This document shows positions 11,701-52,618 of a DNA stretch of 64,000 nt, in pieces. The position numbers and the translations under genes are program-made. The stretch spans positions 74,953 to 138,952 of the forward strand of contig CALVIX010000003.1 of assembly GCA_944331895.1 (NCBI GenBank). The letters are read 5' to 3'. The notes beneath the pieces are model-generated. The model worked only from the letters and a program-made list of their open reading frames with translations, made no database searches and was not told where the DNA came from. Within the stretch, counting starts at the first letter, position 1. The number at the start of each line of letters is the position of its first letter. Origin of the DNA: an uncultured Bacilli bacterium (lineage in GTDB: Bacteria; Bacillota_I; Bacilli_A; RF39; UBA660).

Positions 11701-12863
11701 TAGAATTGAATTAGTTCATATACGTTACAACCATTTCGATTTCCACAATTACCGCTTTCGATCTCTCCTGCCTCACTATAATATCCAGTAATTGATTGTC
11801 CATAACCTACATGGCTTTGTCTATAATATCCCGACATATTACTCTCTGCATTAAATAGATCACTTTCTTCAGTACCAATAATTGTCGGTTGCAAATTTGC
11901 CTCGATGAAACCTCTTCCACTTCGTTCATAATAGGTTGTACCCATTTCATACTCATCATTTTCGTCCTGTAAAAAATAAACGTTACAAGTGTTCGTTTTC
12001 GTCCCTGTTTCTAAAAAGCCAAAAGATGGTGCCGGGCATTGATAAGAACTATGATAATTGGCACTATCATCGTAGCAATCTGTACATGATCCATATTCGA
12101 CATCCGTTCCACCAAAAAGACTTTTCGTCGCTGTCGTCGTAATCGTACTTCCTTTATAATATCCAGCTACTTCTGGATATTCATAAATGTAATTGATCGT
12201 ACTAATTTGATTCATTCCCTTTGATTTCAACTGCGACTGTGCACTATCGATCGTTACTCCACTATTTACATACGCAACCGTTGCATTTGTCCAAGAAGCA
12301 TACATGTGAATTTCAATTTCACCTGCATTTCCAACTGGAACACTTACGTACCTTTTATAATAAGTATCATCATACGAAATCTCGGCACCTTGATAGTTGG
12401 TCATCCATCCATTGAATGCTAGATCGTTGGGGTGATCAGCAAATGGATTATCGATCAACTCTATCTCGATGGCACCGTTTTTCTTCGGATAATATTTATA
12501 GTAGACAAAAGTGTTTTGCCTTTCTGTAAGAGAGACATATCCCGTATGTTGTCCATCGTAGCTAGTACCATGATAGACAACTGTCGTCTTTACTAAATTA
12601 TTATCACCATACAAGTTTTTGTTTGCGAGTGTCGGTAAAGCTCCATCACTACTATATGTATAATTCTGACCCAAATAATAATAATAATCACTATCGGAAT
12701 CATCTATGTAAACTGTATTGCCAACAATCCCACGTGAAACTGTTGCTTTTGGATTTGCTGTTTTCCACGCTCCGTAGGAAAAGGCAATCGTCGTAATAGG
12801 GATAATACACGCTAAAAGAATCAAGAAATATACTTGACGATTCTTCTTGAACTTTTTTCTCAT
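5757..12863 (-). CDS. Giant secreted beta-solenoid protein (2368 aa) with a SipW-cognate-like N-terminus
   Basis: N-terminus MRKKFKKNRQ plus one hydrophobic span, then AFSYGAWKTANPKATV. Aa ~40-490 is a Tyr/Cys-containing region. Aa ~490-1510 is Gly/Asn/Thr-rich with at least 24 [YF]GG[GSN]N units at ~25-aa spacing. Aa ~1520-2368 is beta-rich. No LPXTG or other C-terminal anchor. Confidence 0.75.
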   Translation of the reverse strand: MRKKFKKNRQVYFLILLACIIPITTIAFSYGAWKTANPKATVSRGIVGNTVYIDDSDSDYYYYLGQNYTYSSDGALPTLANKNLYGDNNLVKTTVVYHGTSYDGQHTGYVSLTERQNTFVYYKYYPKKNGAIEIELIDNPFADHPNDLAFNGWMTNYQGAEISYDDTYYKRYVSVPVGNAGEIEIHMYASWTNATVAYVNSGVTIDSAQSQLKSKGMNQISTINYIYEYPEVAGYYKGSTITTTATKSLFGGTDVEYGSCTDCYDDSANYHSSYQCPAPSFGFLETGTKTNTCNVYFLQDENDEYEMGTTYYERSGRGFIEANLQPTIIGTEESDLFNAESNMSGYYRQSHVGYGQSITGYYSEAGEIESGNCGNRNGCNVYELIQFYKADGTEEKLDPDADYYYLTTRDTNILVMNGNMSRGWSESSTKPFTLTGIHNSIDYNPTWNVNNLSVTAYSDLRIENMTISTTTSHREVDPSSRNSASATFYGNYFNVKFGRNIKQNGNYVNFTSILGGRNSDSFWGGGTFGSSSNPERYELVIESGDYNSVSLTMGSSTGTSGTQLYTETYGVYGNDYDRVTVNNDNLLVYFCASGSWGGRIYSSNNDLTPALNTIVKSGRFGTHDIDHTSGIYVGGRQGGTHYAPRLAKIEGGYIANLIGGPLTASSKGSTNDTYIYMTGGEADTITGGAGTSTTYGNRILQVTGGTVNYSIFGGSNGYDGSSSDGTLTGDSYVYIGGTATIGNDTYINNGSTIWGSEAGSVFGSGNGNSRYATIGSVNHSNIVIADQAVVKKNVYGSGNYGTVGYSASNSSTTSIQLVGGTVNGSVFGSGNHSGSGRSGRVTSTIEITMDGGSVLDSIYGGSNQEGTVYGSSAVTLVNGSLKDAYGGGLGEDTYVTQNIDMTVGTARTRNLNVTGSVYGGSAFGVVNSGQKTTTQSAYSTSVIVNAGTINQVFGGGKGNQTITPYVAGDVSVTTTGGVITNLFGGNDAKGEPNGSVVVTLNGGTITNAYGGGNNTLVSETNVFQNGSQVTNLFGGSNQSGDVENAQITISGGSATNIYGGNNVGGKTTTTNITMTGGTVGTMYGGGKLTDSNTSTLTIKNGTVDTVYGGGEQANMSQSTLIMVENATIGELYGGSNILGNVPQSDIRITGGNLTNVYGGNNQGGITATTNILLSGGTITNAYGGGNKTSTTTSNLTLSGSTVGSIYGGGNQAGVTTTNVDLKSGQATYAFGGSNQAGTVETSNVKAENPSNLTVGNVYGGNNQGGVTKDANVTLNGGSYTNLYGGGNMAPTDQTNVQVDSITMNGEFFGGGNQAAVNYDTKVVFKNSSIAGDLFGGGNLGIVSGDTEVNISNSHIQSSIYAGGNGQSAIVHGSTTLNVDQNTIVDQHVFGGGNAANTGTKEVNRSVSHVNIAGAAIHGNVYGGANTAVLYGTVELNIGSNENLTKSDIMIDGTVFGGGEANAEGDPNYDYSFISVTEGIQITIDGDGYDQFYIKGSIFGSGNASSTEGYSYIDISNYGTFDQYQENISIQRADIVTLKNSAIKLEGTTDRTNEFSTTKFSISRVKELKLANNSTLFLDNGTNLLQKFNSLKIDGENETEASVTITEGGSVTKNVDNRVYMLEGKNMNIATNEAVTSYGEVSGMTFFGMYQLDRNDRVLTAFYHQKYDAGDTVASGEFYAFTSGSYVLGLHNTNHDITKDGFYSNYENEDVEGTVEVKYIEPTPSDASYYMWVIGETVETYELTLTASKYATLGTYELPLVTSGGANTQFEILGFNYQNLEEGFELVDPDTIERVNRDGKADDIMGLSMEASNTGFVTKGSTNFRTEEGSSVVGTTNYQSENSSAVPSFIFYLYHSKNLTQAREIGTVVISLLEITPIDELNNEVTRVNINVTINSALYANNEYEGAMTTGEKYDLFASTQTNITTKSSLSAYYSLYMETDKPYYQTGYQHALVSSYVLPVGTKITMIDFATMPTYYYHVIDEEDYRNATAEHALYGESSYYLSDFIAMGSTSADNNYNEQKNMELYYDEEMGIIEEEFIFIVDFGDTTIEGDQIGKSLLMELRNAQDQTLISVLGIQHANLTYNLYDNRDAVIDVEGTLSKNPIYIGEDSDLTLTTNFTQSTASGATVVDTTYLDKRLGVYITIFDANQNQLNNSSLLGLTYELDGVTYYPRMDGSIRIPLADKVANVLSRIKIHTNNVNLASGNYTMKIESFGSPDGIYFGTNSSDQITIPFEIINSRYGLDVSLDERQTIVDKETGYTTLGNNALIFHVKYSSNLSNPNIRVSLFRRNYDEIYDTTYSQVNLLDYVSNNMQQKNENEYLLSEMPAAESDKNLYLKSNLKSGTYRFVFRLYDGDTLIGDCTEYVIIK
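8469..10301 (-). repeat. Coding tandem repeats (~75 nt / ~25 aa) of the beta-solenoid core
   Basis: Repeated xVYGGGNxxGxVxxTNVTLxGGTVxN pattern (IYGGSN, AYGGGN, LFGGSN, IYGGNN, MYGGGK, VYGGGE ...). Degenerate at the DNA level. Confidence 0.6.
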
Positions 12864-33542: not shown

Positions 33543-34049
33543 TTACTTCGTGTATTGTTTAGCTTTTTCTTCTGTATTCCTTAAACTGTCACTCTTAATA
33601 CGTTCAATAATTTCAACGACATCTTCATCAGCAAACTCACTCTTTAACAAATCTTCCTTCGTCAAGTAAGTCGAAATCGGTTTTTTTTGTTCAACATCAA
33701 TAGAAAAAACCCCAACTTCCGCAATACTACACTTCTCATCTTCCATCGTCTTTTCATGATAACAATTATTAGATAAAACATCTATATAGTGGTTAGCATG
33801 ATTATCTTTATCTAAACGTGTTTCAAATTTGTAATCTCCATAAGTCACCGTAGGACGGACAATCAAAATATCATCATTCGAATCTGTAATCACATAAGCA
33901 TCTTCTAAAACAGTCCCCTCTAATAAACTAGGCGTACTAACAACTTCTTCACTATTATTAGAAGAACATCCAACGATACCACTACTAGCTAAAACTACTG
34001 CACTTCCAAATAATACTCTTTTCATTCCACGATATAAATTTAATTTCAT
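33543..34049 (-). CDS. Lipoprotein, unknown function
   Basis: Lipobox GIVGC after a signal sequence. RBS AAGGAG. Confidence 0.6.
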   Translation of the reverse strand: MKLNLYRGMKRVLFGSAVVLASSGIVGCSSNNSEEVVSTPSLLEGTVLEDAYVITDSNDDILIVRPTVTYGDYKFETRLDKDNHANHYIDVLSNNCYHEKTMEDEKCSIAEVGVFSIDVEQKKPISTYLTKEDLLKSEFADEDVVEIIERIKSDSLRNTEEKAKQYTK

Positions 34050-34245: not shown

Positions 34246-35172
34246 TCAATACCCTATAATTTGATTTCCACTTCCGAGTGACGATGTCCAAGCCGCCTGA
34301 TAATTTGCAAGCGATTCTTGTGGTACGCGAATCGTAACATCTGATTTTAAGTTTTTAAAGGTTCCATTCGTCCCCTCGATAATCGTCGGAACTTCCGTAG
34401 ACGTAAATGTGATCGTCTGCAGAGCAGTCGCTCCTTCAAAAACCCAATTATCCAATATCACGACAGATGGTGGGAATGTAATAAAGTTTAGTTGCGTCTC
34501 ATCTTTGAATGCATACGTATTGATCTTTTGAATTCCATCTGGCATATAGATCGTCGCAAGTGGTAGTGGCGTTCCATCTGGTTTGGAAACAAAACTATAT
34601 TCCCATAAAGGTGTTCCTGCGATGCTAGACGGTAAAATCAAATCTTGGCTAGTTCCATTATAAATAATTCCTGACGTAGTCTCATCTAACGCTAATGTCA
34701 CATCGGTTTCTAACTGCCTTGTTCCATCGATTAACGCCTGTTGAATATCTGGAACATATGCATACTCTGGATATGTTAAATCCGCACTCGTCGAACATTC
34801 TCCGTCTTGAATCGATACTTTAGAATCATCATATTCTTTCGAAATACACCAATCTTCCGTTTGGACCAATACTTTAATTTGACCTTTCGCATTCACGACG
34901 ATCGTTCCATCTCCTTCGAGTTCTCCGTCATAATCAACGTCCGGACTCAAAGTACCTTCTCGTACGACGTACATCTTAGAAAAATTGATCGTATCATACG
35001 ATTTATTCATATCGATCGCCTTTAATAAACTTTGATAACTATTTCGCATCGTACTCTTCCTACTCTCATTTACCGAATCCATCACGATTGGAACGGCAAT
35101 CAAGCTGATGATGGCAAGCACTATCATAACGCCCAATAGTTCTAACAACGTAAATCCTTTATTTGATCTCAT
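34246..35172 (-). CDS. Type IV pilin-like protein fused to BspA-type leucine-rich repeats
   Basis: MRSNKG|FTLLELLGVMIVLAIISLIAVPIV (prepilin cleavage/methylation motif). A pilin module ending WCISKEYDDSKVSIQDGECS. C-terminal repeats of the IxxxAFxxCxxL type (INTYAFKDETQLNFITFP, LDNWVFEGATALQTITF). Confidence 0.65.
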   Translation of the reverse strand: MRSNKGFTLLELLGVMIVLAIISLIAVPIVMDSVNESRKSTMRNSYQSLLKAIDMNKSYDTINFSKMYVVREGTLSPDVDYDGELEGDGTIVVNAKGQIKVLVQTEDWCISKEYDDSKVSIQDGECSTSADLTYPEYAYVPDIQQALIDGTRQLETDVTLALDETTSGIIYNGTSQDLILPSSIAGTPLWEYSFVSKPDGTPLPLATIYMPDGIQKINTYAFKDETQLNFITFPPSVVILDNWVFEGATALQTITFTSTEVPTIIEGTNGTFKNLKSDVTIRVPQESLANYQAAWTSSLGSGNQIIGY

Positions 35173-35190: not shown

Positions 35191-35565
35191 CTAAGAACAA
35201 GTTCCATCTTCTACTATGATCTTTTTATCATCTTTTCCTTTTTTGGCACAATATTTTCCATTCGTGATAGAAATTGTAATTTCTCCTTCTTCTGTCACTG
35301 CGATCGTACCTTCTCCTTCGATCTTTCCTTTTACGGATAGTGCTGGTGTCACTTTGCCATCTTTCACAGTATAAGTCTGCGCAACACCATATTCCCTTTC
35401 TACGTTAACTGCTCTTAATAATCCATTCACACTCGAACCAAAAGACTCTTTTCGTGCCTTTTCAATACTACTATACACAATTGGTGTCACCATCACTGCA
35501 ATAAGTGCCAGCAAAATAACAACTACTAATAATTCTATCAGCGTAAAACCATTTTTTCTTTTCAT
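35191..35565 (-). CDS. Type IV pilin / pseudopilin (124 aa, minimal module)
   Basis: MKRKNG|FTLIELLVVVILLALIAVMVTPIV. C-terminal Cys pair (YCAKKG...DGTCS). Confidence 0.7.
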   Translation of the reverse strand: MKRKNGFTLIELLVVVILLALIAVMVTPIVYSSIEKARKESFGSSVNGLLRAVNVEREYGVAQTYTVKDGKVTPALSVKGKIEGEGTIAVTEEGEITISITNGKYCAKKGKDDKKIIVEDGTCS

Positions 35566-36680: not shown

Positions 36681-38738
36681 CTAATTTGAAATTTCTTCTT
36701 TATTGCTTCTCATATCAAGTGTCGCTTCGTTGACTGCATCATCGATCGTTTTAATAGCATCGTGAATCATGCTATAACCAATCGCTGCTCCAAATCCGTG
36801 AGATAAATCTTTCAATTCCTTATTTAATTTTCGAATGTAAGATACAACTTGTTTTTCGTCGTAACCTACCATGTAGATCAAAAATTCATTTCCATTGGTA
36901 CGAACAATATCCGTATTTTCAATCTGCGTCGTAATCAATTTGTTAGCCGCTTCTTTGATGACTTTATCTCCCTCTTCATGTCCATAATTATCGTTGATAT
37001 AAGCAATATTGTTTAAATCGATGATGATAATTGTCTGCGGATATACTTCTGATTCATCCCAAATAGAAATATTATCATTCAAATAATTTCGATTTTTTAA
37101 AGATGTCAACATGTCGATATATTTGATCTTTTCTCCCTTTGGAATTGTAATCTTTTTCTTCGTATCTCTTGTCTTCCACTTATTGAAACCATAAATAACG
37201 GCAAGTACGATTAAAACAGCTCCAATGAGAACACTTATGATTCCTGTTAAAATTGGTTTTGTTCGAAGCGCTAATAGATCTTCATATCCTACATACAAAC
37301 TATTTTGTTCTTGAATGAATGACAAATAGAAATTGAAGAAATCATAAAATATTTTATTAGCCTTAATATCTCGTACAACGTATGTATACGGCGTTTCTAA
37401 GTAAAATTGATAATTTACTTTATAGTCTGATAATTGATCATTCTTATAGTACTGATAAGCATCTGAATCGATCACGACAACGCCATTTGCGATTGGATGT
37501 TCTAATAAACTAGTTATGTTTTCATACTCTTCACATTCGATTCCTTTTTCTTTTAAATATGATGCAATTTTCGTTCCCTCTACTACCTGTACTTTACGAT
37601 TTTTTAAAGATGCAAGTGAGGTAATCACTGTATGATCACTTGCAGGTGTTGCAACTGTTACCTGTTCTGAACCGATAGAAACAGTATTCAATACATCCAT
37701 CTTATAGTTTGTATCTTGGTTTGTTCCATAGAAGAAATCTAAATTATTCGCATTGAAATCTTCTAATAGATTTCCAAGATTTTCATAAGATTTGTATGTG
37801 ATTTCAATTCCTGTCATATTGGAAAATGATTTTAAAATCTGAGCATTCATTCCATACAATCGACCACTAGATAATTGATCGTATGGTGCTTGTTCGATAA
37901 AACCATATAAATATCTTTTACCAACAAAAGTAGCTTTTTCTTTTTCCCCTACTTCTGCAGCAGTATAATATGCATTGGTAAAATTTTCGTTATAAGAATC
38001 TTGAAAACGATCGTCCATCCATTTTTTCGTATATTTTTTCAAAATCGTATTTAATTTTCCAGTATCTCCTAAACGCAAAACGTAATTTTGTTCTAAATCA
38101 CTAAACGTATATGCGATATTCATCTCGTCACTTTCGACAATTTCAGACATGTAAGCCACTTTCGGAATGACGATCGCATCAATCGTCGTCTGTGTTCCTG
38201 TCGCTGTGATCGCCTTAATTAACTCGTCGTTCGATTGGAACGTCTGATATTTAATATTACTTGCACCTTCTAACACCGTTCCAATCTTCTCTAGATCACT
38301 TGTCAATACACCGATCGTCAAATCTTTAATATCGTGTAGATCGTAATATTTTACAGCCGCTTTCGTCACGAGAGCATAAGCATCTTGATAAAACAAAATA
38401 TCGTTTTTCCCTACTTTATCTACCACTTGGAAAGAATAATCGCTCGTATTGTTATTAGCATTTTCATAAGGTGATCGATTAAATTCTAATCCCGTATCAT
38501 TTTCTAAGTCATTCAAATAATCGAAGAAAACACCTGTTCCATCAGAAGAGAAAATTGGGGTGTAATTCATCACTCCAAAATCGATCAACTTATTTTTATT
38601 ATTCTCAATCCATTGCTTTTCTATTAACGTCAAAGTAGAGTTTTTTTCCTCGCGGAAAAATACAAAATACACTCCATAGAAAACGAAAAGAAAAGCGATG
38701 GCAATTACGATCCCAACGATCCATTGTTTCTTTTTCAT
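36681..38738 (-). CDS. Membrane sensor with extracytoplasmic solute-binding-like region and a degenerate GGDEF domain
   Basis: N-TM, a ~480-aa external region, a second TM, then DMLTSLKNRNYL, IDLNNIAYINDNYGHEEGD, and RTNGNEF (nt 36882-36896) in place of RxGGDEF. Confidence 0.7.
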   Translation of the reverse strand: MKKKQWIVGIVIAIAFLFVFYGVYFVFFREEKNSTLTLIEKQWIENNKNKLIDFGVMNYTPIFSSDGTGVFFDYLNDLENDTGLEFNRSPYENANNNTSDYSFQVVDKVGKNDILFYQDAYALVTKAAVKYYDLHDIKDLTIGVLTSDLEKIGTVLEGASNIKYQTFQSNDELIKAITATGTQTTIDAIVIPKVAYMSEIVESDEMNIAYTFSDLEQNYVLRLGDTGKLNTILKKYTKKWMDDRFQDSYNENFTNAYYTAAEVGEKEKATFVGKRYLYGFIEQAPYDQLSSGRLYGMNAQILKSFSNMTGIEITYKSYENLGNLLEDFNANNLDFFYGTNQDTNYKMDVLNTVSIGSEQVTVATPASDHTVITSLASLKNRKVQVVEGTKIASYLKEKGIECEEYENITSLLEHPIANGVVVIDSDAYQYYKNDQLSDYKVNYQFYLETPYTYVVRDIKANKIFYDFFNFYLSFIQEQNSLYVGYEDLLALRTKPILTGIISVLIGAVLIVLAVIYGFNKWKTRDTKKKITIPKGEKIKYIDMLTSLKNRNYLNDNISIWDESEVYPQTIIIIDLNNIAYINDNYGHEEGDKVIKEAANKLITTQIENTDIVRTNGNEFLIYMVGYDEKQVVSYIRKLNKELKDLSHGFGAAIGYSMIHDAIKTIDDAVNEATLDMRSNKEEISN

Positions 38739-42427: not shown

Positions 42428-43474
42428 CTATCCTTTCATTATGTAGATTCTCGCACTAGAGCTTGTTTTCTCCTTGCTGATAAAACCTACCATATCATTA
42501 TTTTCCTTTAAATAAACTTTTATTTGAATTCCTCCCGGAAATGTATTAGAAAGTTCCGTGCTAATCAGTTGACTCACTTTTAATAACTCACTTTTGTTCA
42601 TATACGTACTATGAACATCGATTTCTAAATTTTGCAGCCTTCCACTGACGTAAAGACCCTCTGCTACCATGTACGTTGTCGGAAACAATTCAGTCAACTT
42701 CTTTTTTAAATTTTGAAATGCTGTATACGAATTCATATCTTTCTCTTGTACCCAACTAGATTCTAAGAGTTGATACTGATAGTCGACACTTTGAAAACTA
42801 ATATCCTGTGAAGAAGTGATGCCTACCTGTTTAAAACTTCCAGGTAATACCTCATCCGGACTATTTTGAACATATAATCCCATCAAAACTTTTACGTCCT
42901 TTAAATCTTTTTCTTCTCGTAAATACGTTAGTAACTCTTGCGCTCGCTTCTTTCCAAATTCCAGTACCGTCGTCTCGTCAACCTTTTTATATTGATAAGC
43001 TCCATACTGGTTTTGATATTGTTGATACGGATTTAAAACGACCGCAATACTAATTCCTTTTAGTTTTCCCTCGCTAGATAAATAATTCTGTTCATAAATG
43101 TAAGAAATATATTCTGGAGAAATTGAAATTCCATCGATCGTTACATTGTCTGCCTGATTTAATTTTTCTCTCGATAATAGGCTTGTCAAATCTTTTTCAC
43201 TCAGATACTGTCCAGCCTGATAATAGGTATTATCAGTCGGAAAATAAGAGGTGGAAATATCCATAAGCGAGCTTTCCACTTCTTCGCGATCATAGTGATT
43301 CAAAATGTGACTGACAACATAATCGTTCGAAACTCCACTTTTGTATGGTTCATAAATAGAATAACTATCTTCGTCGAACTTCAAATCTGTCTTTACTTCC
43401 TCCTCTTTTTTATCGCATCCACACAATAATAAAAGAGTACATAGCACTAATACATACTTTTTCATACACATCAC
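42428..43474 (-). CDS. CamS/YerH-like lipoprotein
   Basis: Lipobox LLCGC, ~340 aa. Sits in the conserved position immediately upstream of gatC, as in Bacillus and Enterococcus. Start probably at 43465 (MKKYVL). Confidence 0.5.
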   Translation of the reverse strand: MMCMKKYVLVLCTLLLLCGCDKKEEEVKTDLKFDEDSYSIYEPYKSGVSNDYVVSHILNHYDREEVESSLMDISTSYFPTDNTYYQAGQYLSEKDLTSLLSREKLNQADNVTIDGISISPEYISYIYEQNYLSSEGKLKGISIAVVLNPYQQYQNQYGAYQYKKVDETTVLEFGKKRAQELLTYLREEKDLKDVKVLMGLYVQNSPDEVLPGSFKQVGITSSQDISFQSVDYQYQLLESSWVQEKDMNSYTAFQNLKKKLTELFPTTYMVAEGLYVSGRLQNLEIDVHSTYMNKSELLKVSQLISTELSNTFPGGIQIKVYLKENNDMVGFISKEKTSSSARIYIMKG

Positions 43475-43510
43475 CTGGATAAAATAATTATACCACGATT
43501 ACATATTAGA

Positions 43511-43542
43511 AAAAAGAAAAAACATGGCAAAACCATGTTTTT
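43511..43542 (-). terminator. Strong palindromic terminator
   Basis: AAAAACATGG-caaaa-CCATGTTTTT; on the minus strand followed by a T-rich tract. Confidence 0.7.
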
Positions 43543-43548
43543 CTACAA

Positions 43549-43962
43549 TTACCTATTGATAGAATATTCTACTGCTGTTGCTCCTACAAGCTCTTGATCC
43601 CAACTACTCGTAATCGTTCTCGATGTTCCATTTGGAATCACTTCACCTACATATCCAAAATTCTCAGCAATGATATTTCCATCTTTATCTTTGATGTATA
43701 TGTTGAATGAAAGTAAATATTCATCTTTTCCTGTATCATTACTTACCTCTGTTACAAGTGTCGCCATTCCATTTTGACTAGATAGTGACGTATTTGTAAG
43801 TTTCAATCCTTCCACTACTTGATCTTTCACGATATCCTCACTTGTATTTACTTTTACTTCATCCTCTTTTTTCTCTACTTTTTCTTCTTTCTTATCACAG
43901 CCACATCCTGTTGCAAACATTGCTAAACAAGCAACTAATATTATTCCTATTTTCTTTTTCAT
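43549..43962 (-). CDS. Lipoprotein, unknown function
   Basis: Lipobox FATGC; 137 aa. Confidence 0.6.
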   Translation of the reverse strand: MKKKIGIILVACLAMFATGCGCDKKEEKVEKKEDEVKVNTSEDIVKDQVVEGLKLTNTSLSSQNGMATLVTEVSNDTGKDEYLLSFNIYIKDKDGNIIAENFGYVGEVIPNGTSRTITSSWDQELVGATAVEYSINR

Positions 43963-44035
43963 ATATTTCCTCCTATAATTTATCCTATCATTTATGACTC
44001 TCTAACAAAAATTACGATACAGGAATTTTTCTCGT

Positions 44036-44839
44036 TTAATCAAAATCCAAAGGATTTGACGGATCATAATACCCCTTTTTAATTGCGTCTTGATAAATTT
44101 GTTCTAGTCTTATATTGCTTTGATTAATGAATGCCTGTCCGTATGTACTTTGCCCAGGCTCGACAACTCGAGGGCTATTCATCCCTATGAGCTCATTATA
44201 AACAGAATCTCCATTCACAATCTCTCCATTTTTCTTTATGATAGTAATATCTCGCTCTTCTTCTTCCTTATATTGATCAGCATAGTGTAATATAACATCT
44301 ATCGCTTTCATATAACATCTTCCAAAATAGTCAATCATCTGCTCCTTATTTAATGTGTTAATATCTAGAGTAGCAGCGATTTCGTTTTGAATTTTAGCTG
44401 ATAAATTACCAACATCAAACTGGAACATAAATAAATTGACTCCTTTATATTTGTAAATTATAACTTCCTCTCCGACAGTTCCTAGCGATTCACTTTCTAA
44501 AACGAACTCATCATCGCTTGCCAACGACGTTTCCATTCGGTTACTTAACTCTGTTTTCAACTCAGAATATTGTTCCCCAGGAATTAAATTTAACTGCCAT
44601 GCTTGATCACTTAAAGGATATTGATCTTCATATAATGTTGTTCCTTCTGTATTCTTTTTAAATTCTGAAATACTAAAATCAGATGTCCCATAATCTTCTA
44701 ATGCGGGTTCTATTTTCTGTTCTTTTGGTTTTGTATCTTTCTTCCATGGATGGATAACCAAAAGCAAAATAGCCAATATAAGAACAACCAAAACAACAAA
44801 TAATATTATTAATCTTTTTTTGCTCGATTTATTTTCCAT
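44036..44839 (-). CDS. Single-span membrane protein, unknown function
   Basis: 267 aa. Starts 15 nt after the giant pilin stop. Confidence 0.55.
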   Translation of the reverse strand: MENKSSKKRLIILFVVLVVLILAILLLVIHPWKKDTKPKEQKIEPALEDYGTSDFSISEFKKNTEGTTLYEDQYPLSDQAWQLNLIPGEQYSELKTELSNRMETSLASDDEFVLESESLGTVGEEVIIYKYKGVNLFMFQFDVGNLSAKIQNEIAATLDINTLNKEQMIDYFGRCYMKAIDVILHYADQYKEEEERDITIIKKNGEIVNGDSVYNELIGMNSPRVVEPGQSTYGQAFINQSNIRLEQIYQDAIKKGYYDPSNPLDFD

Positions 44840-44854
44840 TTTGCTTTCCTCCTA

Positions 44855-47800
44855 TTATCCCCATCCGGTTGTATTTCCGGCTCTATCTTGATCGTAGTAC
44901 TGCATATACAGGAATGCGTGTTGCCCACCACATAGTGTTGAATGTTTACAATGTACATACCACGTATCTACGCCATAATCTCCCCAACGAATACTATAGT
45001 TAGCAAATTGTCCATTCTGTTGACCATAATATGCATAGTAAAGAGTCCCTGACATGTTTGAATTCCATGAAGCTCTAATTCCTTGAGTTCTAACTCCTGC
45101 ATATCCTTGGAATGCATCGTTACCACGATAAATTAAGTATCTAGCATCATAACTACTTGCTCCCCAAGATCCTGCTCCAGGAGACCAAACTTGGAAATTC
45201 ACATAACGTTTTACTGGTGCAACATTATCGGCTCCAACCCATGCAGCTTTTGCTACCGAACAACGATTAGATCCATCGTAATTTTTCGTATTCGTACAAA
45301 CTTTATAACAAATATATTTAGAAGCAGTGCGAGTTGATGTTCGACCGCCACCATGGTTTTCTAAGTATCCAGTTGGCCATTGATTTGCACCAGCATAAGA
45401 ACAACTTGTATCCGTATCATCTAACGTATAATATTTTACTCCACTTGCGGCAGAAGCATTTACGGAGAATGTTCTCGTCTTTGCCCAACCACTAAATGAG
45501 GTTGCTCCTGGGTTCACAAGCGTCCAATTTGAACGAATCGTAACCGTTCCTATTGCTTTTGCAGTAATCGTATTACCACTGACTGTTGCTAAGCTTGTAT
45601 TTGTCGACGACCAACTCTTTCTCGTATAACCGCTTGCTGTCATATTTGGTGCGGTTGTAGACTTTCCAACATCCACAGTTACTTTTTGTTGTGCCCCAGT
45701 AATATCATTATTAAATACTACTGTTGTAACAGCTTGCCAGTGTGCATAAATTGTTACGTTCGATGCTGGCATTACGGTTGAGCTTGATACTTTCGTTCCT
45801 CCACTTGCAGCGGTATACCATCCTAAGAATCTATAATTTGCCTTTGTTGGTGTTGGTAAAGTCCCATAAGTTGAACCCGCTGTTACCTTTTTACTTGTTG
45901 GACTAACACTTCCTCCGTTTGCATTGTAAGTAAGTGTAAATTGATTTTGAATTAACTTACTTACCGCAGCAGATTGAGTTTGTAATCCAACTCCGTTCGT
46001 ACACCTTGCACGGAAATTGTATGTTCCGGTTGCTAAACTTCCAAACGTATATGTTGTTTTTGTACCATTTGCTACATAGCTTGCTCCATTGTCTTTGCTA
46101 AATTCAACCTTCGTAATTCCAGATTGTGCATCTGTACAGGTTGCTTTTAATGTTGCACTATTATATGTTGTTGAACTTACTGCAACTGTTGCTGATGGTG
46201 CGGAAGTATCAATTTGTGTTACTGAGAATGAGCTTGCCGTTACATAGTTCGTACCGTCTGTAATTCTTGCAATAATCGTTCCATTTGCTGTAAATGTTAC
46301 TTGTTTTGTCGTCGCTGGACTTGCAACTGTCGTCCAAGACTTTCCACCATCTAAACTATACTGATATGTAAAGTTAGATTGTCTTGCTGGATATGTAATC
46401 GTTACGACTTTCTTCGTTTGCCATCCCGTTTTATCTACTGCATACGTTGGCGTTCCGATTGAGTTTGTCGTTCCACTTACTGCAGTTGACGCTGTTTTCA
46501 CTCCTGCTCCATTCGTACATCTTATTTTAAAGTTATACGTTCCTGTCTTTAAACTACCGAAAGTATAAGTTGTACTCGTTCCACCAGAAACATATGTGCT
46601 TCCATTATCCTTACTGTACTCTATTTTTGTAATTCCCGATTGTGCATCCGTACATGTCGCTTTTATAGCAATGGAATTGGTCGTCTTTGTAGATACCGCT
46701 GCAATTGCTGTTGGTCCAGTCGAATCGACTTGTGTTACCGCAAAACTACTTGCTGTTACATAGTTTGTTCCATCATGTACTCTTGCAATGACTGTTCCAT
46801 TTGATGTAAATGTCACTTGTTGTGTCGTTGCCGGACTTGCGACAGTCTTCCAAGATTTTCCACCATCTGTACTATATTGATATGTAAAGTTAGACTGTCT
46901 TGTTGGATACGTAATCGTAACAATTTTCTTCGTCTGCCATCCTGTTTTATCTACTTTATAGGTTGGTGCGGAAATTGCATTTGTCGTTGCACTTACCGCA
47001 CTTGAAGTTCCTACCGTTCCAGATCCACTCGTACATCTTACTTTGAAGTTATACGTTCCTGTCTTTAGTCCACTAAACGTGTAAGTTTTGCTCGTTCCTG
47101 CATCGACAAATGATCCTCCATTATCTTTACTGTATGCGTATTTTGCAATTCCGGAATCACCAGTCGTACACGTTGCTGAAAGTGTGACACTATTACTCGT
47201 TTTTCCCGTTACCGCAAGTGCTGCTGATACTTTCGTCGTATCAATTTGTGTTACCGCAAAACTACTTGCCGTCACATAGTTCGTTCCGTCGGTCACTCTT
47301 GCAATGACTGTTCCAGTTGCCGTAAATGTAAGTTGTTTTGTCGTTGCTGGCGCAGCAACTGTCGTCCAAGATCTTCCACCATCTAAACTATATTGATATG
47401 TGAAATTAGATTGACGAGCTGGATACGTAATCGTAACTACTTTACTTGTTGCCCATCCTGTTTTATTGACTGCATATGTTGGCGTACCAATCGTATTTGT
47501 CGCCCCTCCAACAGAAGCAGATACTGTTTTTAATCCTGATCCGTTCGTACATCTTACCTTGAAGTTGTAATTTCCAGTTTTTAATCCACCAAATGTGTAA
47601 GTCGTACTCGTATTTCCATTTTCATAACTTGAACCGTTATCTTTACTATATTCAATTTTCGTAATTCCAGATTCATTATCTGTACATGTTGCTTTCAATG
47701 TTACGCTATTACTTGTCTTTGATGCGATACTTGCCACTGCACTTGGTCCAGTCGGATCGACTTGTGTAACTGCAAATGAACTTGCCGTTACATAGTTCGT

Positions 47801-50488
47801 TCCATCGTAAATTCGTGCAATAACTGTTCCATTTGCTGTAAATGTAACATTTTGCGTCGTAGCTGGACTCGCAACAGTTTTCCAACTAGAGCCACCGTCT
47901 AAACTATATTGATATACAAATTGACTCTCTCGCTCAGGATATGTAATCGTTACAACTTTCTTTGATTGCCATCCTGTTTTATCTACTTTATACGTTGGTG
48001 GATTTATCACATTTGTTGCAACACTTAATGTACTTGTCGTCGTCTGCAGTCCTGATCCATTTGTACACCTTGCTTTAAAATTGTATGTACCAGCTTTTAA
48101 TCCACTAAATGTATAATTTGCGTTGACTCCACTACTTACATAACTTGAACCGTTATCTTTACTAAATTCAATTTTTGTAATTCCTGATTGTGCATCTGTA
48201 CATGTTGCCTTTAATGACACAGAATTGCTTTTCTTAGATGTACTTGCGAGTGTCGCTGTTGGTGCAGTCGTATCAATTTGTGTCACCGCAAAGCTACTTG
48301 CCGTTACATAGTTTGTTCCATCCGTTACTCTTGCGATAACTGTTCCATTTGCTGTAAAAGTTAGTTGTTTTGTCGTTGCCGGAGCTGCAACCGTCGTCCA
48401 ACTTCTTCCTCCATCTAAACTATATTGATATGTGAAATTAGACTGACGTGCCGGGTATGTAATCGTCACAACCTTCTTCGTTTGCCATCCTGTTTTATCT
48501 ACTGCATATGTTGGTGTACCTATTGCATTTGTTGCACTATTAACTGTCGTAGACACTGTTTGAAGTCCCGAACCATTCGTACATCTTACCTTGAAATTGT
48601 ATGTTCCTGTTTTCAAACCCGTAAAACTATACGTCGTTTTCGTTCCCCCAGAAACATAGCTACTTCCATTATCTTTGCTATATTCTATCTTCGTGATACC
48701 CGATTCGTTATCTACACACGATGCCGATAGGTTAGCTGAATTACTTGTCTTGCTAGCTACTGACACAGTTGCACTCGGCGCTGATGAATCGACTTGTGTG
48801 ATAGATAAACTGCTCGCTGTCTTATAGTTGACACCATCTGTTACCCTTGCAATTAACGTTCCATTGGTTGTAAATGTTACTTGTTGTTGTGTAAGCGGTG
48901 CAGGTACCGTCGTCCAACTTCTTCCTCCATCCAAACTATATTGATATACATAATTAGATTCTCTTGCTTGGAATGTAATCGTTACAACCTTCTTTGGCTG
49001 CCATCCTGTTTTATCGATTGCATAAGTTGGTGTAATCAACTCTAGTGGATTTCCTGACAATGTTGCACTCTCACTCTTTAACCCTGCTCCGTTAGTACAT
49101 CTCGCCTTAAAGTAATATGATCCTTCCGATAAATTATTGAAAGTATAAGTGTCTTTTGTGCCTCCATTGACATATGTCTTTCCGTTATCTTTGCTGTATT
49201 CTATCTTGCTAATACCAGACTTATCATCCGTACAAGTCGCTTTTAATGTAATTGAATTACTCGTTCGACCACCCATTGCAATTACTGATGTCGGTGGTGT
49301 CGTATCGATTTGTGTAACTGCAAAGCTACTTGCTGTCTTATAGTTGACACCATCTGTAATTCTTGCAATGACTGTTCCGTTTGCTGTAAATGTAATTTGT
49401 TGTTTTGTTCCAGGGCTTGCGACTTCTTTCCAAGATTTACCACCATCTAAGCTATACTGATATACAAAATCTTCTTCTCTTGCTGGATATGTAATCGTTA
49501 CAATCTTCTTTGGTTGCCATCCTGTCTTATCTACTGCGTATGTTGGTGGAATAATATCATTTGTCGTAGCACTAACTACATTACTTGCCGTCTCTAAGCC
49601 GGCACCATTTACAACCCGTGCTTTTAATTGGTAACTACCAGTTTTTAATTTTTTAAAAGTATACGTCTTACCAGCGCCAGCATTTTCCCAAGTTTTTCCG
49701 TTATCTTTACTATAATAAATGGTTCCAATTCCACTTTCTTTGTCCTCTCCTGTTGTAGTCACAGTAATACTATTAGTTGTTTTTTTCGTTACTGCTATAG
49801 CAACGTCTTCTGGTGGAGTTGAATCAATTTGCGTTACTGAGAACGTACTTGCTGTCTGATAAGACAAGCCATCATAAACTCTCGCCACAATTGTACCAGG
49901 TTGTGTAAATTCTATTTTCTTTTCATTTCCTGTTTTGACGACAATCCATGTTTTTCCACCATCTAAACTATAATCAAAAATTAGCCCTTCTTCTCGTTCT
50001 GGATATGTAATTGTCACTGTCTTCTTTGGTGCCCATCCTACTTTGTCAATTTTATATGTCGGCAATAATGGATTAGCAACTTCGCTACATTTTCCTTTTT
50101 CAATCCGATAGTTTTTATTCGTTCCAAAGACACACCAAGTATTATTTTCTACTTGTAATCTAACAAGTCCAGATTTATTTAAAGATATCAGCCCACTTCC
50201 ATCAAATTCTCCTTTTACCGGAATCATTTTTGTATCGAACTCTCTATCTTCTATATATTGAATATCGGTTTGATTGACTACGTATTGTCCTATCGCTTTC
50301 ATATCATGTTCACTATTATATTGCTCTACTGAAGCAACAACTGACTTAACATTTTCTAAAAAGCGATCCTTCCTCGTCTCCTCGATAATTCCCATCACAA
50401 TAGGAATCGTAATTACGGCAAGTACCGCCAAAATAACAATTACCGCTAATATTTCTATTAACGTAAACCCTCTTTTATTTACTTTCAT
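44855..50488 (-). CDS. Giant modular type IV pilin-like protein (1877 aa from ATG 50488)
   Basis: GGAG RBS then MKVNKRG|FTLIEILAVIVILAVLAVITIPIV. A pilin module to ~aa 145. Eight ~172-aa tandem units (xDKTGWQxKKVVTITYPxR ... CTNGSGL). A Listeria-Bacteroides-type repeat (FTLTYNANGG...YRFLGWY...IYAHW), a Big_2-like segment, and a ~220-aa Cys/Trp/Tyr/Gly-rich end. Confidence 0.75.
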   Translation of the reverse strand: MKVNKRGFTLIEILAVIVILAVLAVITIPIVMGIIEETRKDRFLENVKSVVASVEQYNSEHDMKAIGQYVVNQTDIQYIEDREFDTKMIPVKGEFDGSGLISLNKSGLVRLQVENNTWCVFGTNKNYRIEKGKCSEVANPLLPTYKIDKVGWAPKKTVTITYPEREEGLIFDYSLDGGKTWIVVKTGNEKKIEFTQPGTIVARVYDGLSYQTASTFSVTQIDSTPPEDVAIAVTKKTTNSITVTTTGEDKESGIGTIYYSKDNGKTWENAGAGKTYTFKKLKTGSYQLKARVVNGAGLETASNVVSATTNDIIPPTYAVDKTGWQPKKIVTITYPAREEDFVYQYSLDGGKSWKEVASPGTKQQITFTANGTVIARITDGVNYKTASSFAVTQIDTTPPTSVIAMGGRTSNSITLKATCTDDKSGISKIEYSKDNGKTYVNGGTKDTYTFNNLSEGSYYFKARCTNGAGLKSESATLSGNPLELITPTYAIDKTGWQPKKVVTITFQARESNYVYQYSLDGGRSWTTVPAPLTQQQVTFTTNGTLIARVTDGVNYKTASSLSITQVDSSAPSATVSVASKTSNSANLSASCVDNESGITKIEYSKDNGSSYVSGGTKTTYSFTGLKTGTYNFKVRCTNGSGLQTVSTTVNSATNAIGTPTYAVDKTGWQTKKVVTITYPARQSNFTYQYSLDGGRSWTTVAAPATTKQLTFTANGTVIARVTDGTNYVTASSFAVTQIDTTAPTATLASTSKKSNSVSLKATCTDAQSGITKIEFSKDNGSSYVSSGVNANYTFSGLKAGTYNFKARCTNGSGLQTTTSTLSVATNVINPPTYKVDKTGWQSKKVVTITYPERESQFVYQYSLDGGSSWKTVASPATTQNVTFTANGTVIARIYDGTNYVTASSFAVTQVDPTGPSAVASIASKTSNSVTLKATCTDNESGITKIEYSKDNGSSYENGNTSTTYTFGGLKTGNYNFKVRCTNGSGLKTVSASVGGATNTIGTPTYAVNKTGWATSKVVTITYPARQSNFTYQYSLDGGRSWTTVAAPATTKQLTFTATGTVIARVTDGTNYVTASSFAVTQIDTTKVSAALAVTGKTSNSVTLSATCTTGDSGIAKYAYSKDNGGSFVDAGTSKTYTFSGLKTGTYNFKVRCTSGSGTVGTSSAVSATTNAISAPTYKVDKTGWQTKKIVTITYPTRQSNFTYQYSTDGGKSWKTVASPATTQQVTFTSNGTVIARVHDGTNYVTASSFAVTQVDSTGPTAIAAVSTKTTNSIAIKATCTDAQSGITKIEYSKDNGSTYVSGGTSTTYTFGSLKTGTYNFKIRCTNGAGVKTASTAVSGTTNSIGTPTYAVDKTGWQTKKVVTITYPARQSNFTYQYSLDGGKSWTTVASPATTKQVTFTANGTIIARITDGTNYVTASSFSVTQIDTSAPSATVAVSSTTYNSATLKATCTDAQSGITKVEFSKDNGASYVANGTKTTYTFGSLATGTYNFRARCTNGVGLQTQSAAVSKLIQNQFTLTYNANGGSVSPTSKKVTAGSTYGTLPTPTKANYRFLGWYTAASGGTKVSSSTVMPASNVTIYAHWQAVTTVVFNNDITGAQQKVTVDVGKSTTAPNMTASGYTRKSWSSTNTSLATVSGNTITAKAIGTVTIRSNWTLVNPGATSFSGWAKTRTFSVNASAASGVKYYTLDDTDTSCSYAGANQWPTGYLENHGGGRTSTRTASKYICYKVCTNTKNYDGSNRCSVAKAAWVGADNVAPVKRYVNFQVWSPGAGSWGASSYDARYLIYRGNDAFQGYAGVRTQGIRASWNSNMSGTLYYAYYGQQNGQFANYSIRWGDYGVDTWYVHCKHSTLCGGQHAFLYMQYYDQDRAGNTTGWG
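45956..50059 (-). repeat. Eight in-frame tandem repeats of ~515-518 bp
   Basis: The anchor motif (ccatcctgttttatctactgcatatgttgg and variants) recurs near 46440, 46955, 47470, 47985, 48503, 49018, 49535 and 50050. Confidence 0.8.
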
Positions 50489-50521
50489 CGCAATCACTCC
50501 GTACTAGTCTATCATATTTCA

Positions 50522-50550
50522 AGTATACTATATGGTAGAAGTTTCGTCAA
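50522..50550 (-). promoter_or_regulatory. Sigma-A-like promoter of the giant pilin gene
   Basis: Minus strand TTGACG, 17 nt, TATACT. Confidence 0.5.
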
Positions 50551-50569
50551 TAAAATCGATTTGATTTCA

Positions 50570-50593
50570 AATAAAAAGTCCCTCACGGGACTA
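50570..50593 (-). terminator. topA terminator
   Basis: Minus strand AGTCCC-gtga-GGGACT followed by TTTTATTT. It overlaps the stop codon. Confidence 0.65.
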
Positions 50594-52618
50594 TTTTTCG
50601 TAATCGCAATTGCTACATTTAATTTTATCTTTCTTCTCCGTCAACATACTTCCACACTCTGGACATTTCTCTCCTGTAGGACGATCCCAATAGGCAGTTT
50701 TACATTTCGGAAAATTGTTACAACCATAGAAAAGTTTACCACGTTTGCTTTTACGTTCGATAATTTTTCCATCGCAATTTGGACAATCACAAACGACAAC
50801 TTCTTCTTTTGGCTGTGCCTTGATATATTTACATTCTGGGTAATTACTACAAGCTACAAACTCTCCATAACGTCCTTTACGTACGACTAAATCACTTCCA
50901 CATTCTGGACAAACTTCTCCCGTTTTTTCAGGGGCTTTCTTCTCCATTTGATCAAACGCTTCTTTTACGGCAGGTTCAAAATCTTTGTAAAATTCTTCCA
51001 ACGTTTGATACCAAACTTTTTTACCTTCTGCAATTTCATCTAAATCTTCTTCCATTGCAGCAGTATATTTTACATTAATAATATGCGAGAAGTGTTCTTG
51101 TAATCGATCCGTTACTTCAAAACCAATCTCTGTCGGTTTAAATTTTTTCTCTTCTAAAACGACATACCCTCTCGTTTTAATGTTATCCATAATCGTCGCA
51201 TAAGTACTTGGACGACCAATTCCTAATTCTTCCATCGCTTTTACTAGCTTGGCTTCCGTATAGCGAGCTGGTGGTTTTGTAAAGTGTTGTTCTTTCGTAA
51301 TATCGTTTGATACGATCACATTTGATTGATATTCGTCTAATGGTGGCAACGTATTTTCTTTCGTATCTTCATAGTCTTGATATACCTTTAAATATCCGTC
51401 GAAGACAATCACTTGACCGGTTGCCTTAAATTGATAATCATTGTTGTCTAAAATTACAGTCGTATTTTCCGTTTTTGCATCTTTCATGAGGGATGCTAAA
51501 GCACGATAATAAATCATACGATATAATTTAAATTCATCATCAGATAGGTATGGTCTTACATTTTCTGGTGTTCTTTCGATGCTCGTTGGTCGAATCGCTT
51601 CGTGTGCATCCTGAACGTTTTCCGTCTTCTTTGCCATTTTGACATATCCTAAATATTCTTTTCCATACTTCGCTTCAATCCACTGATAAGTACTACCGAT
51701 AAATTCGTTCGATAAACGAGTTGAATCTGTACGCATATAAGTAATGAGTCCGACTGTCTCATCGGCTAGTTCTATTCCCTCGTATAACTTCTGTGCAACA
51801 CTCATCGTCTTTTTTGCACTCATATTTAATTTATTTGAAGCATCTTGTTGGAGCGTACTTGTCGTAAAAGGTAATTTTGACTTCTTATTCTTTACTTTTT
51901 TATCGACTGATTCTATCTTAAATGCATTGGAAAGTTGATCCAACACCTCGTTTGCTTCTACCTCGTTATGAATTTCAAAGTCTTTGTGGTTCTTTTGAAA
52001 TAAATCCGCATCAAATTCTTTAAAGTGTGCATGAATCGTCCAGTATTCTTCCGCTTGGAATGCCTCGATTTCACGTTCGCGATCGACGATTAGTTTAAGT
52101 GCGACAGACTGTACTCTTCCTGCTGACTTTCCACCAGTTTTCGCCTGCATTAACTTACTCAAACGAAATCCGATGATACGGTCTAAAATACGACGTGTCT
52201 CTTGTGAATTTACAAGATTTTGATCGATTTTACGTGCATGTTGAAATGCATCTAATACCGCATTTTTCGTAATCTCGTGAAATACGACACGATCGTAATT
52301 GTTCTCTTTTAATCCCAACGTGTCATATAAATGCCAACTGATCGCTTCTCCCTCGCGGTCGGGGTCGGTTGCAAGATATACAAAACTTGCATTTTTTACA
52401 TCTTTCTTTAATTCATCAATCGTCTTTTTCTTTCCTTTGATCGTCGTATACTTCGGTTTAAAATGGTCTTCGATATCGACACCTAATCCATATTTTCCAC
52501 TCGTTGAAAGATCTCTAATATGACCTTTACTCGATACGACTTTATAATCTTTTCCTAAGTATTTTTCAATTGTCTTAGACTTACTAGGAGACTCCACAAT
52601 CACTAAATTCTTTGCCAC
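50591..52618 (-). CDS. topA: DNA topoisomerase I
   Basis: 675 aa; TOPRIM N-terminus LVIVESPSKSKTI, C-terminal CxxC zinc ribbons, GTG start. Confidence 0.95.
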   Translation of the reverse strand: MAKNLVIVESPSKSKTIEKYLGKDYKVVSSKGHIRDLSTSGKYGLGVDIEDHFKPKYTTIKGKKKTIDELKKDVKNASFVYLATDPDREGEAISWHLYDTLGLKENNYDRVVFHEITKNAVLDAFQHARKIDQNLVNSQETRRILDRIIGFRLSKLMQAKTGGKSAGRVQSVALKLIVDREREIEAFQAEEYWTIHAHFKEFDADLFQKNHKDFEIHNEVEANEVLDQLSNAFKIESVDKKVKNKKSKLPFTTSTLQQDASNKLNMSAKKTMSVAQKLYEGIELADETVGLITYMRTDSTRLSNEFIGSTYQWIEAKYGKEYLGYVKMAKKTENVQDAHEAIRPTSIERTPENVRPYLSDDEFKLYRMIYYRALASLMKDAKTENTTVILDNNDYQFKATGQVIVFDGYLKVYQDYEDTKENTLPPLDEYQSNVIVSNDITKEQHFTKPPARYTEAKLVKAMEELGIGRPSTYATIMDNIKTRGYVVLEEKKFKPTEIGFEVTDRLQEHFSHIINVKYTAAMEEDLDEIAEGKKVWYQTLEEFYKDFEPAVKEAFDQMEKKAPEKTGEVCPECGSDLVVRKGRYGEFVACSNYPECKYIKAQPKEEVVVCDCPNCDGKIIERKSKRGKLFYGCNNFPKCKTAYWDRPTGEKCPECGSMLTEKKDKIKCSNCDYEK

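Follow-up and report, generated by a model that had tools for sequence, protein, structure and literature searches.

A giant modular type IV pilin with a strain-variable tip and a co-varying partner gene in an uncultured gut Bacilli lineage

The window analysed here is a stretch of 64,000 nucleotides (nt) from an uncultured Bacilli bacterium (GenBank assembly GCA_944331895.1, contig CALVIX010000003.1, positions 74,953 to 138,952 of the forward strand), and the gene under study lies within it on the minus strand, at 44855..50488, where it encodes a giant modular prepilin of 1877 amino acids (aa) plus stop, with the ATG at 50488 and the stop codon at 44855-44857. A GGAG ribosome-binding site is found ∼8 nt 5' of this ATG, which makes an in-frame GTG at 50497 the less likely start. 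Read from the N-terminus, with all parts encoded on the minus strand, the product consists of a pilin module (residues 1-142; 50063..50488), eight tandem 172-aa repeats that are each a pair of Ig-like domains (residues 143-1518; 45935..50062), a Flg_new (Listeria-Bacteroides) repeat (residues ∼1519-1590; 45719..45934), a beta domain without hidden Markov model (HMM) signature that was predicted by AlphaFold2 (residues 1591-1679; 45452..45718), and an orphan, strain-variable tip (residues 1680-1877; 44858..45451). On the same strand, 15 nt after the pilin stop, begins the gene of an N-terminally anchored membrane protein of 267 aa (44036..44839), the partner of the tip, and beyond it lies the gene of a 137-aa lipoprotein with the lipobox TGC (43549..43962), a conserved downstream neighbour of giant pilin genes. 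The 1877-aa protein is a real, intact giant modular type IV pilin, and the evidence for this begins with its head.

The protein starts with MKVNKRG followed by FTLIEILAVIVILAVLAVITIPIV, that is, a short basic leader of seven residues ending in Gly(-1), then a hydrophobic stretch with Glu at +5, the mature chain having Phe1, Glu5 and Pro22. An earlier note on this DNA, made from the sequence alone, had read a class III signal here, with a ∼120-aa globular module ending in a Cys pair behind it, and had proposed an HMM scan and an AlphaFold model as checks. Both elements were borne out: Pfam N_methyl (PF07963) scored 27.9 bits against a gathering cut-off of 21.2, the NCBIfam model TIGR02532 scored 29.1 bits against a cut-off of 16.3, and AlphaFold2 modelled residues 1-142 with a predicted local distance difference test (pLDDT) value of 86.7, the model consisting of a long helix (10-60) and then six strands that make up a beta-sheet head. 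Cys119 and Cys134 stand at the end of this globular head, an equivalent pair is present in most aligned heads, and the two may form the C-terminal disulfide loop that many, though not all, pilin heads possess. In an alignment of 107 head-family members, which are the proteins retrieved with a profile of the head, G-1, F+1, L+3 and E+5 were invariant, and the mature Pro22 was at least 90% conserved. A charged Glu within the hydrophobic helix is retained in pilins for filament assembly. When the head-family profile was compared with the PDB, the best match was the Streptococcus sanguinis major pilin PilE1 in a cryo-electron microscopy filament (8pfb_G, E=1.5e-14), spanning profile positions 8-118 and thus almost the entire chain. 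We take the protein to be a prepilin because the HMM scores, the invariant G-1, F+1 and E+5, the PilE1 profile match and the AlphaFold2 head agree. Narrower identities were tried and rejected, both for Com-pilus pilins (ComGC, 27 against a cut-off of 75; ComGD, 20 against 70; ComGE, 18.6 against 49; ComGF, 16.4 against 80) and for pseudopilins of type II secretion (GspG, 29.6 against 88.85; GspH, 16.1 against 80), the matches to these NCBIfam equivalog models being confined to N-terminal stretches, which for the Com models reached residues 4-76 at most.

The stalk that follows the head agrees with the earlier description of eight ∼172-aa repeats with two beta-sandwich-like halves, in that each repeat is exactly 172 aa long, the eight pairs amount to 16 Ig-like domains, the units are 48-77% identical in amino acid sequence, and both halves match Ig-like families (Big_7, fn3, Y_Y_Y and DUF7743 in Pfam, and an OmpL47-type domain in NCBIfam). 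Matches to BNR and Reelin-subrepeat families were also obtained, because the repeats carry Asp-box-like SxDxGxxW motifs. Repeats were defined by alignment; Tandem Repeats Finder reported nothing, the 516-bp period being above its limit. The Listeria-Bacteroides-type repeat noted earlier was recovered by Pfam and by TIGR02543, with a Flg_new match at residues 1517-1583 of 68.8 bits (cut-off 27). The segment behind it had been called Big_2-like; the label found no HMM match, while the predicted beta fold stood, since AlphaFold2 gave a pLDDT of ∼90 over residues 1591-1660, the first ∼70 residues of the domain. With Big_7, fn3, Y_Y_Y and Flg_new placed C-terminal to N_methyl, the protein is a modular pilin as defined by Raynaud et al. 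(2021), that is, an N-terminal pilin module joined to at least one domain that is not specific to type IV filament biology (PMC8179133).

The 22 cysteines of the protein are strictly paired: the head has 119/134, every repeat from 2 to 8 has two that are 45 residues apart (repeat 1 lacks both), and the tip has six. This pattern would fit an extracytoplasmic, disulfide-bonded protein. The sole transmembrane-like segment is N-terminal and there is no C-terminal anchor. A sortase-anchored adhesin, which would have a C-terminal LPXTG motif with a hydrophobic tail and a basic end, was considered and rejected, as no LPXTG motif is present and the C-terminus reads DRAGNTTGWG. The prepilin signal and pilin head are thereby shown to be the only membrane or assembly interface of the 1877-aa protein.

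The earlier note had allowed that the repeat array might be an assembly artefact, and this proved not to be the case, because the units share only 57-74% nucleotide identity, too diverged for collapse or expansion in assembly, and independent assemblies agree on the size. At least six independent assemblies encode a product of this same length, 1877 aa, in some cases on long contigs (1.04 Mb and 541 kb), and the orthologues are 97% identical. A related population (L007 and L008, 10001-12967) carries, in the syntenic pilin gene, an in-frame TAA in repeat 1, between TQID and TPPED; the stop is present in 15 contigs and is therefore fixed rather than a sequencing error. In that population the gene encodes three repeat pairs and three Flg_new repeats, its tip is of another kind, and a partner gene is missing. 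Taken together with the contig of the species' GTDB representative metagenome-assembled genome (MAG), which breaks at the pilin gene, this stop might be read as the mark of an assembly artefact or of a decaying pseudogene with a chance pilin-like N-terminus. We give that explanation almost no credence, given an open reading frame (ORF) unbroken over 5.6 kb, its identical size in many independent assemblies, the divergence of the repeat units, and HMM scores above curated cut-offs. One of the contigs with the gene comes from a human gut metagenome (L093, ENA ORSK01001319) and carries topA, the 1877-aa pilin, the 267-aa partner, the lipoprotein and CamS at 99% identity; the species is therefore not restricted to chickens. 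The organism belongs to Candidatus Fimihabitans (intestinipullorum or a near relative), which NCBI places in Mycoplasmatota incertae sedis.

The protein is also not alone, as the earlier note had implied it to be. Searching with the full-length sequence brought up at least 25 proteins with PF07963 that are 1000-2521 aa long; the six that were read among these have this head and this two-domain repeat in common and differ in their C-termini. When one genome per species was scanned with the head profile, 80 loci were retrieved, almost all from MAGs of uncultured gut Bacilli, 'Tenericutes', Mycoplasmatota or Erysipelotrichaceae with GC contents of 22-36%, and their prepilin ORFs form a continuous range from ∼100 to 2674 aa, with about half longer than 280 aa, roughly half modular, and with leucine-rich repeat (LRR), DUF6273, dockerin and Gly-rich modules among the cargo. 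Relatives of 1000-2700 aa number in the dozens, and no paper describing pilins as large as this was found in the literature. Two further prepilins, unnoticed earlier, are encoded in the window itself, on the minus strand 9 kb from the giant pilin gene. One is a 124-aa prepilin of the same head family (35191..35565; N_methyl, 33.4 bits, with a TIGR02532 match), a candidate structural pilin that is conserved in L001, L012 and L090, and the other a 308-aa modular prepilin with the same head and a BspA-type LRR module (34246..35172; N_methyl, 28.1 bits; LRR_5, 37.5 bits). In the species' representative MAG (L012, 10122-11270), a third modular pilin, of 382 aa with DUF6273, follows the two small prepilins, and at its position the window has a gene for a 168-aa lipoprotein (33543-34049).

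At the far end of the giant protein, the tip is composed of a Cys-rich sub-domain (C1696, C1727, C1731 and C1743) and the last ∼140 aa, and the suggestion that this end is novel was upheld. Its ∼200 aa are an orphan sequence, with no match in Pfam, NCBIfam or the PDB and with 6 matches among 1.84 billion representative proteins. The 267-aa partner likewise had no match in Pfam, NCBIfam or the PDB, neither sequence had a match in plasmid, phage or PDB collections, and a scan of Joint Genome Institute metagenomes with the partner family returned the same species only.

Tip and partner were compared between the window and two conspecific strains (L090 and L091; topA for L090 only), and with a sister taxon (L001). 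Between the window and the conspecific strains, the pilin head was 99% identical, the repeats 96-97%, the lipoprotein 98% and topA 99%, the last 140 aa of the tip were 65-68% identical, and the downstream membrane protein, of 267 aa in the window and 290 and 273 aa in the two strains, was 32-56% identical. In the sister taxon, where topA is 98% identical, the tip and the downstream gene were both replaced by unrelated sequences. Three of the six proteins that match the tip (P0368, P0369 and P0372) cover most or all of it; they are ∼1000 aa long, with Flg_new repeats, the same conserved beta domain as residues 1591-1679, and the tip at the C-terminus. P0369 (991 aa; L092, 7442-18387) is encoded in a Gram-positive conjugation cluster together with two T4SS_pilin genes and PrgI, TraC-like and VirB4-like genes; its tip is 40% identical to that of the window, and the gene directly after it encodes a 276-aa homologue of the 267-aa partner (29% identity, E=4e-26). 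Because the homologous pair adjoins in this cluster, tip and partner travel together between different carrier proteins, and the comparisons show a co-inherited, fast-diversifying cassette, not reported before, made up of the tip and the 267-aa membrane protein. By eye, the N-termini of P0368, P0369 (KKG followed by FITLEF) and P0372 resemble the Flp/TadE type, a G followed by xxxxE[FY]; Pfam gave no support for this, and it was not relied on.

A variable C-terminal domain with a co-varying gene immediately 3' of it is a trait of polymorphic toxin/immunity systems, and it is found here, along with a conserved N-terminal body, a C-terminus that is divergent or replaced, and a pair that moves as a unit between different carrier proteins. 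Accordingly, the locus could be one of contact-dependent competition, in which the C-terminus is a polymorphic toxin borne at the end of a long stalk, with the variable membrane protein encoded directly 3' of it as cognate immunity factor. We regard this as very unlikely. The six alternative tips of relatives that were scanned had, like the tip and partner of the window, no recognisable domain, and searches of Pfam, NCBIfam and the PDB found no toxin, peptidase or nuclease domain and no pre-toxin demarcation motif in the window tip or in these alternatives. Moreover, an all-beta fold is predicted for the tip, which has cysteines and closes with a DxAGN motif that also ends other Ig-like domains of the family, the partner is an extracytoplasmic protein of 267-290 aa rather than a small cytosolic immunity protein, and the homologous pair has conjugation genes around it, a setting in which one expects roles in adhesion and exclusion.

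Our preferred reading, which we hold to be probable though well short of certain, is that the protein is a giant modular minor pilin, an adhesin displayed at the tip of a type IV filament and carrying a strain-specific binding domain. Sec would insert the precursor so that its N-terminal helix stays in the membrane while the remaining ∼1740 residues are exported, and a prepilin peptidase would then cut after Gly7 and might methylate Phe1. Like other bulky modular minor pilins, the protein would enter a type IV filament at its tip, the filament probably consisting of small pilins, for which the 124-aa protein is a candidate, and filament and stalk together, the latter ∼60-80 nm long, would present the strain-specific domain for binding at a great distance from the cell. 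We propose that the 267-aa partner is a cognate factor of this tip and works in folding, in docking or in self-exclusion. We infer the steps after export. The most likely ligand of the tip would be on the surface of another cell, because, in a Gram-positive conjugation (type IV secretion) cluster, it is a surface protein that a homologous tip and partner serve.

Several points weigh against this reading. Genes for T2SSE, T2SSF or Peptidase_A24 were not found anywhere in the window, either when most ORFs from 90 aa upwards were scanned with Pfam (rpoB/rpoC and ribosomal-protein ORFs left out) or when all ORFs of at least 60 aa were compared by phmmer with a Bacillaceae PilB/PilT/PilC/PilD set, both scans agreeing with the earlier statement that the window holds no PilB/ComGA, PilC/ComGB or PilD/ComC gene. 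None of the five giant-pilin loci (the window and L001-L004) has such machinery within 10 kb, all being set among housekeeping genes, and the same is true of the machinery at ∼75 of the 80 genome loci from MAGs. Since machinery lies near few loci, we infer the linkage to filaments from a few relatives only. The Foldseek search of the AlphaFold2 head model against the PDB gave nothing significant; since solved pilins are matched by the sequence profile, we draw no conclusion from this result. No ligand-binding domain was recognised in the tip by Pfam, NCBIfam and PDB searches, and the last 125 residues of its AlphaFold2 model had a pLDDT below 45, too poor for a structure search. The fixed in-frame stop in the related population means that the protein is dispensable in some lineages, and we know of no pilin for which the lifting of a 1735-residue cargo by a filament has been shown.

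The relatives in question place the family beside assembly genes in several arrangements. In L005, a T2SSF protein of 662 aa, Peptidase_A24 and a head-family pilin occur together, and in L049 a T2SSE gene (432 bits) stands beside six pilin genes. An Erysipelotrichaceae MAG (L045, 61-7161) has a Tad-like operon in the order two TadE-like genes, ParA-like, T2SSE, N_methyl modular pilin and two T2SSF genes, and a similar Tad-like cluster lies 4 kb from a pilin in L042. Four Walker-A ORFs near pilins were examined as T2SSE candidates and proved to encode ABC transporters and VirD4-type coupling proteins. For the genome of the window itself, no prepilin peptidase, assembly ATPase or platform gene was located; when the genome collection was scanned with the head profile, the representative MAG of the species came up at locus L012 alone, which was known already.

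These distributions bear directly on a second reading, in which the stalk is anchored in the membrane and never polymerised, the prepilin helix, cleaved or not, is an N-terminal anchor only, and the pilin head is a general handle for surface display. Surface proteins are displayed through sortase and LPXTG motifs in other Firmicutes, and class III signals are used for surface binding proteins in archaea. The mostly orphan genes of the family, its very wide and continuous range of sizes with many kinds of cargo module, and the N-terminal helix as sole anchor all speak for an anchored stalk. Yet E+5, G-1 and P22, which are needed for processing and filament packing and not for anchoring, are kept family-wide, the match of the head to a major pilin that forms filaments runs the full length of the chain, and family members sit inside assembly operons in relatives, and we consequently judge an anchored stalk to be possible but rather unlikely. 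A bolder reading, in which the pilin head of these uncultured, small-genome gut Bacilli/Mycoplasmatota has become a general surface-protein display handle for proteins of 120 to 2674 aa and the cassette is a strain-specific recognition module exchanged with mating adhesins, seems to us similarly doubtful. In that case the module may be an adhesin with its self-exclusion factor, or a toxin with its immunity protein, swapped between chromosomal giant pilins and conjugative elements.

Returning to the tip-displayed minor pilin, its closest described counterparts are PilB and PilC of S. sanguinis, modular minor pilins with a von Willebrand factor A module and a lectin module, respectively (Raynaud et al., 2021; PMC8179133; PMC9934059). 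The accompanying survey counted more than 1,200 modular pilins in 264 architectures, and the most extreme multi-domain protein that it names has 860 residues (PMC8179133). The 1877-aa protein shares with PilB and PilC a monoderm host, the class III signal, a small head and short linker followed by adhesive domains that do not belong to pili, and an expected location at the filament tip, and it is the PilE1 of the same species that its head profile matches best; however, it is ∼4 times longer, with ∼20 grafted domains in place of one, its stalk of Ig-like domains is long, its tip is an orphan and its partner gene co-varies, and the pilin gene lies outside a pil operon. CofB of enterotoxigenic Escherichia coli and TcpB of Vibrio cholerae, tip adaptors or initiators of type IVb pili, resemble it in having a pilin head followed by beta-repeat or beta-sandwich domains (PMC8179133), but they are ∼500 aa long, belong to diderms, are encoded inside the pilus operon, and have no sequence similarity that we could find to the 1877-aa protein. 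PilC/PilY1 of type IVa pili is a large modular tip adhesin with variable effector modules on a constant carrier (PMC8179133). PilY1 is not a pilin, however, and docks on minor pilins through a beta-propeller, whereas the carrier of the 1877-aa protein is a pilin head.

Comparable designs are also known outside pili. Long tandem Ig-like rods project a ligand-binding region from the cell in SasG and Ebh (LPXTG proteins) and in LapA and MpIBP (repeats-in-toxin proteins); these are anchored by sortase and LPXTG or by type I secretion with an outer-membrane plug, the 1877-aa protein by an N-terminal prepilin helix. The polymorphic toxins CdiA-CT/CdiI, LXG and Rhs combine a conserved long body and a variable C-terminus with a co-varying gene directly 3'; unlike them, the giant pilin has no toxin domain or demarcation motif, and its partner is a large extracytoplasmic membrane protein. 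PrgB and PrgA of pCF10 are a surface adhesin and exclusion pair of conjugation, in which an adhesin and its cognate surface factor follow a logic of aggregation and exclusion. The likeness to them lies in the homologous tip and partner beside T4SS_pilin, PrgI, TraC-like and VirB4-like genes in L092; the differences are that no sequence similarity exists and that the locus of the window lies in the chromosome, with housekeeping genes around it and without conjugation genes in its vicinity.

The accepted explanation for the many functions of simple type IV filaments lies in modular pilins, and the 1877-aa protein is an extreme-size form of this known design, not a new kind of machine. Characterised modular pilins carry one grafted domain, whereas this protein and its relatives reach 1000-2700 residues, and a pilin head that can carry a rod of ∼20 domains raises the question of how a monoderm cell would export, prime and lift such cargo. 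Pilins appear to make up a large and fast-evolving share of the surface repertoire in these uncultured, small-genome gut lineages, and the cassette of tip and partner, shared with an adhesin of a conjugation cluster, offers a handle on strain-level recognition between cells in them. Samples from which hosts of the family were recovered include chicken, human (including Hadza), rabbit and ruminant sources.

Transcription of the locus was assessed from consensus matches. A promoter-like site, TTGACG-17-TATACT (50522..50550, minus strand), which matches the consensus at 10 of 12 positions, lies 5' of the pilin gene and is one of two such matches, the top score, within 43300-50800; as the total count of promoter-like matches in that interval was not above the shuffled expectation, it is weak evidence for a pilin promoter. 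Upstream, a terminator-like hairpin after topA (50577..50592, minus strand), again a consensus match, with a 6-bp stem, 4 G-C pairs and a T-run, sets the pilin gene apart from the preceding gene. A second terminator-like hairpin, likewise recognised by consensus and with a 12-bp stem followed by a T-run (43517..43543, minus strand), closes the presumed unit after the lipoprotein gene. The promoter-like and terminator-like sites thus bracket the genes of the pilin, the 267-aa membrane protein and the lipoprotein, which presumably form a three-gene unit, and the earlier proposal of an own promoter and an operon with these two genes is plausible. Copies of the lipoprotein, 50-54% identical, directly follow the giant pilins P0004 (L003) and P0017 (L004) in distant genomes; copies 94-98% identical occur in L001, L090 and L091, and the gene is present in L007 and L008 too.

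Some features of the relatives' loci are recorded here as observations in their own right. The L045 operon, with a GFTLIE-type pilin between ATPase and platform genes, is an unusual mix of a type IVa-style signal with Tad-type machinery. The T2SSF protein of L005 (6730-10941) has a lysine-rich N-terminal extension of ∼300 residues and no T2SSE within 10 kb; a search with it returned only close relatives of the L005 lineage, and gut metagenomes abound in relatives of 580-606 aa (6671 matches). The pilin of that operon, P0165, ends in FTPSDSSWNVNTVEEALNYLYEN, the same motif as the C-terminus of the giant pilin P0004, and a related motif, VEDALNELY, stands near the N-terminus of two small flanking proteins. 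In L006 (10001-11072; GCA_964018065.1), a 143-aa head-family pilin is encoded between dnaN and a ComK-family gene, which hints at a tie to competence for some members of the family.

Elsewhere in the window, a 685-aa membrane diguanylate cyclase (GGDEF) is encoded between the two pilin loci (36681-38738), at a position conserved in all syntenic loci, and a link between cyclic di-GMP and the expression of the pilin surface proteins is possible. Further away, a cluster of ORFs on the minus strand (685-21977), with almost no Pfam matches, resembles a secreted-fibre locus of the SipW/TasA type; three of its ORFs share the N-terminal pattern KKRRK-LLL...ATYAWFT(A/S)N, and three or four small membrane proteins are signal-peptidase-like, one of them matching Peptidase_S24 at 1.5e-5. 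In the same cluster, an ORF of 2368 aa at 5757-12863 contains dozens of degenerate, beta-helix-like GGxNxxG repeats.

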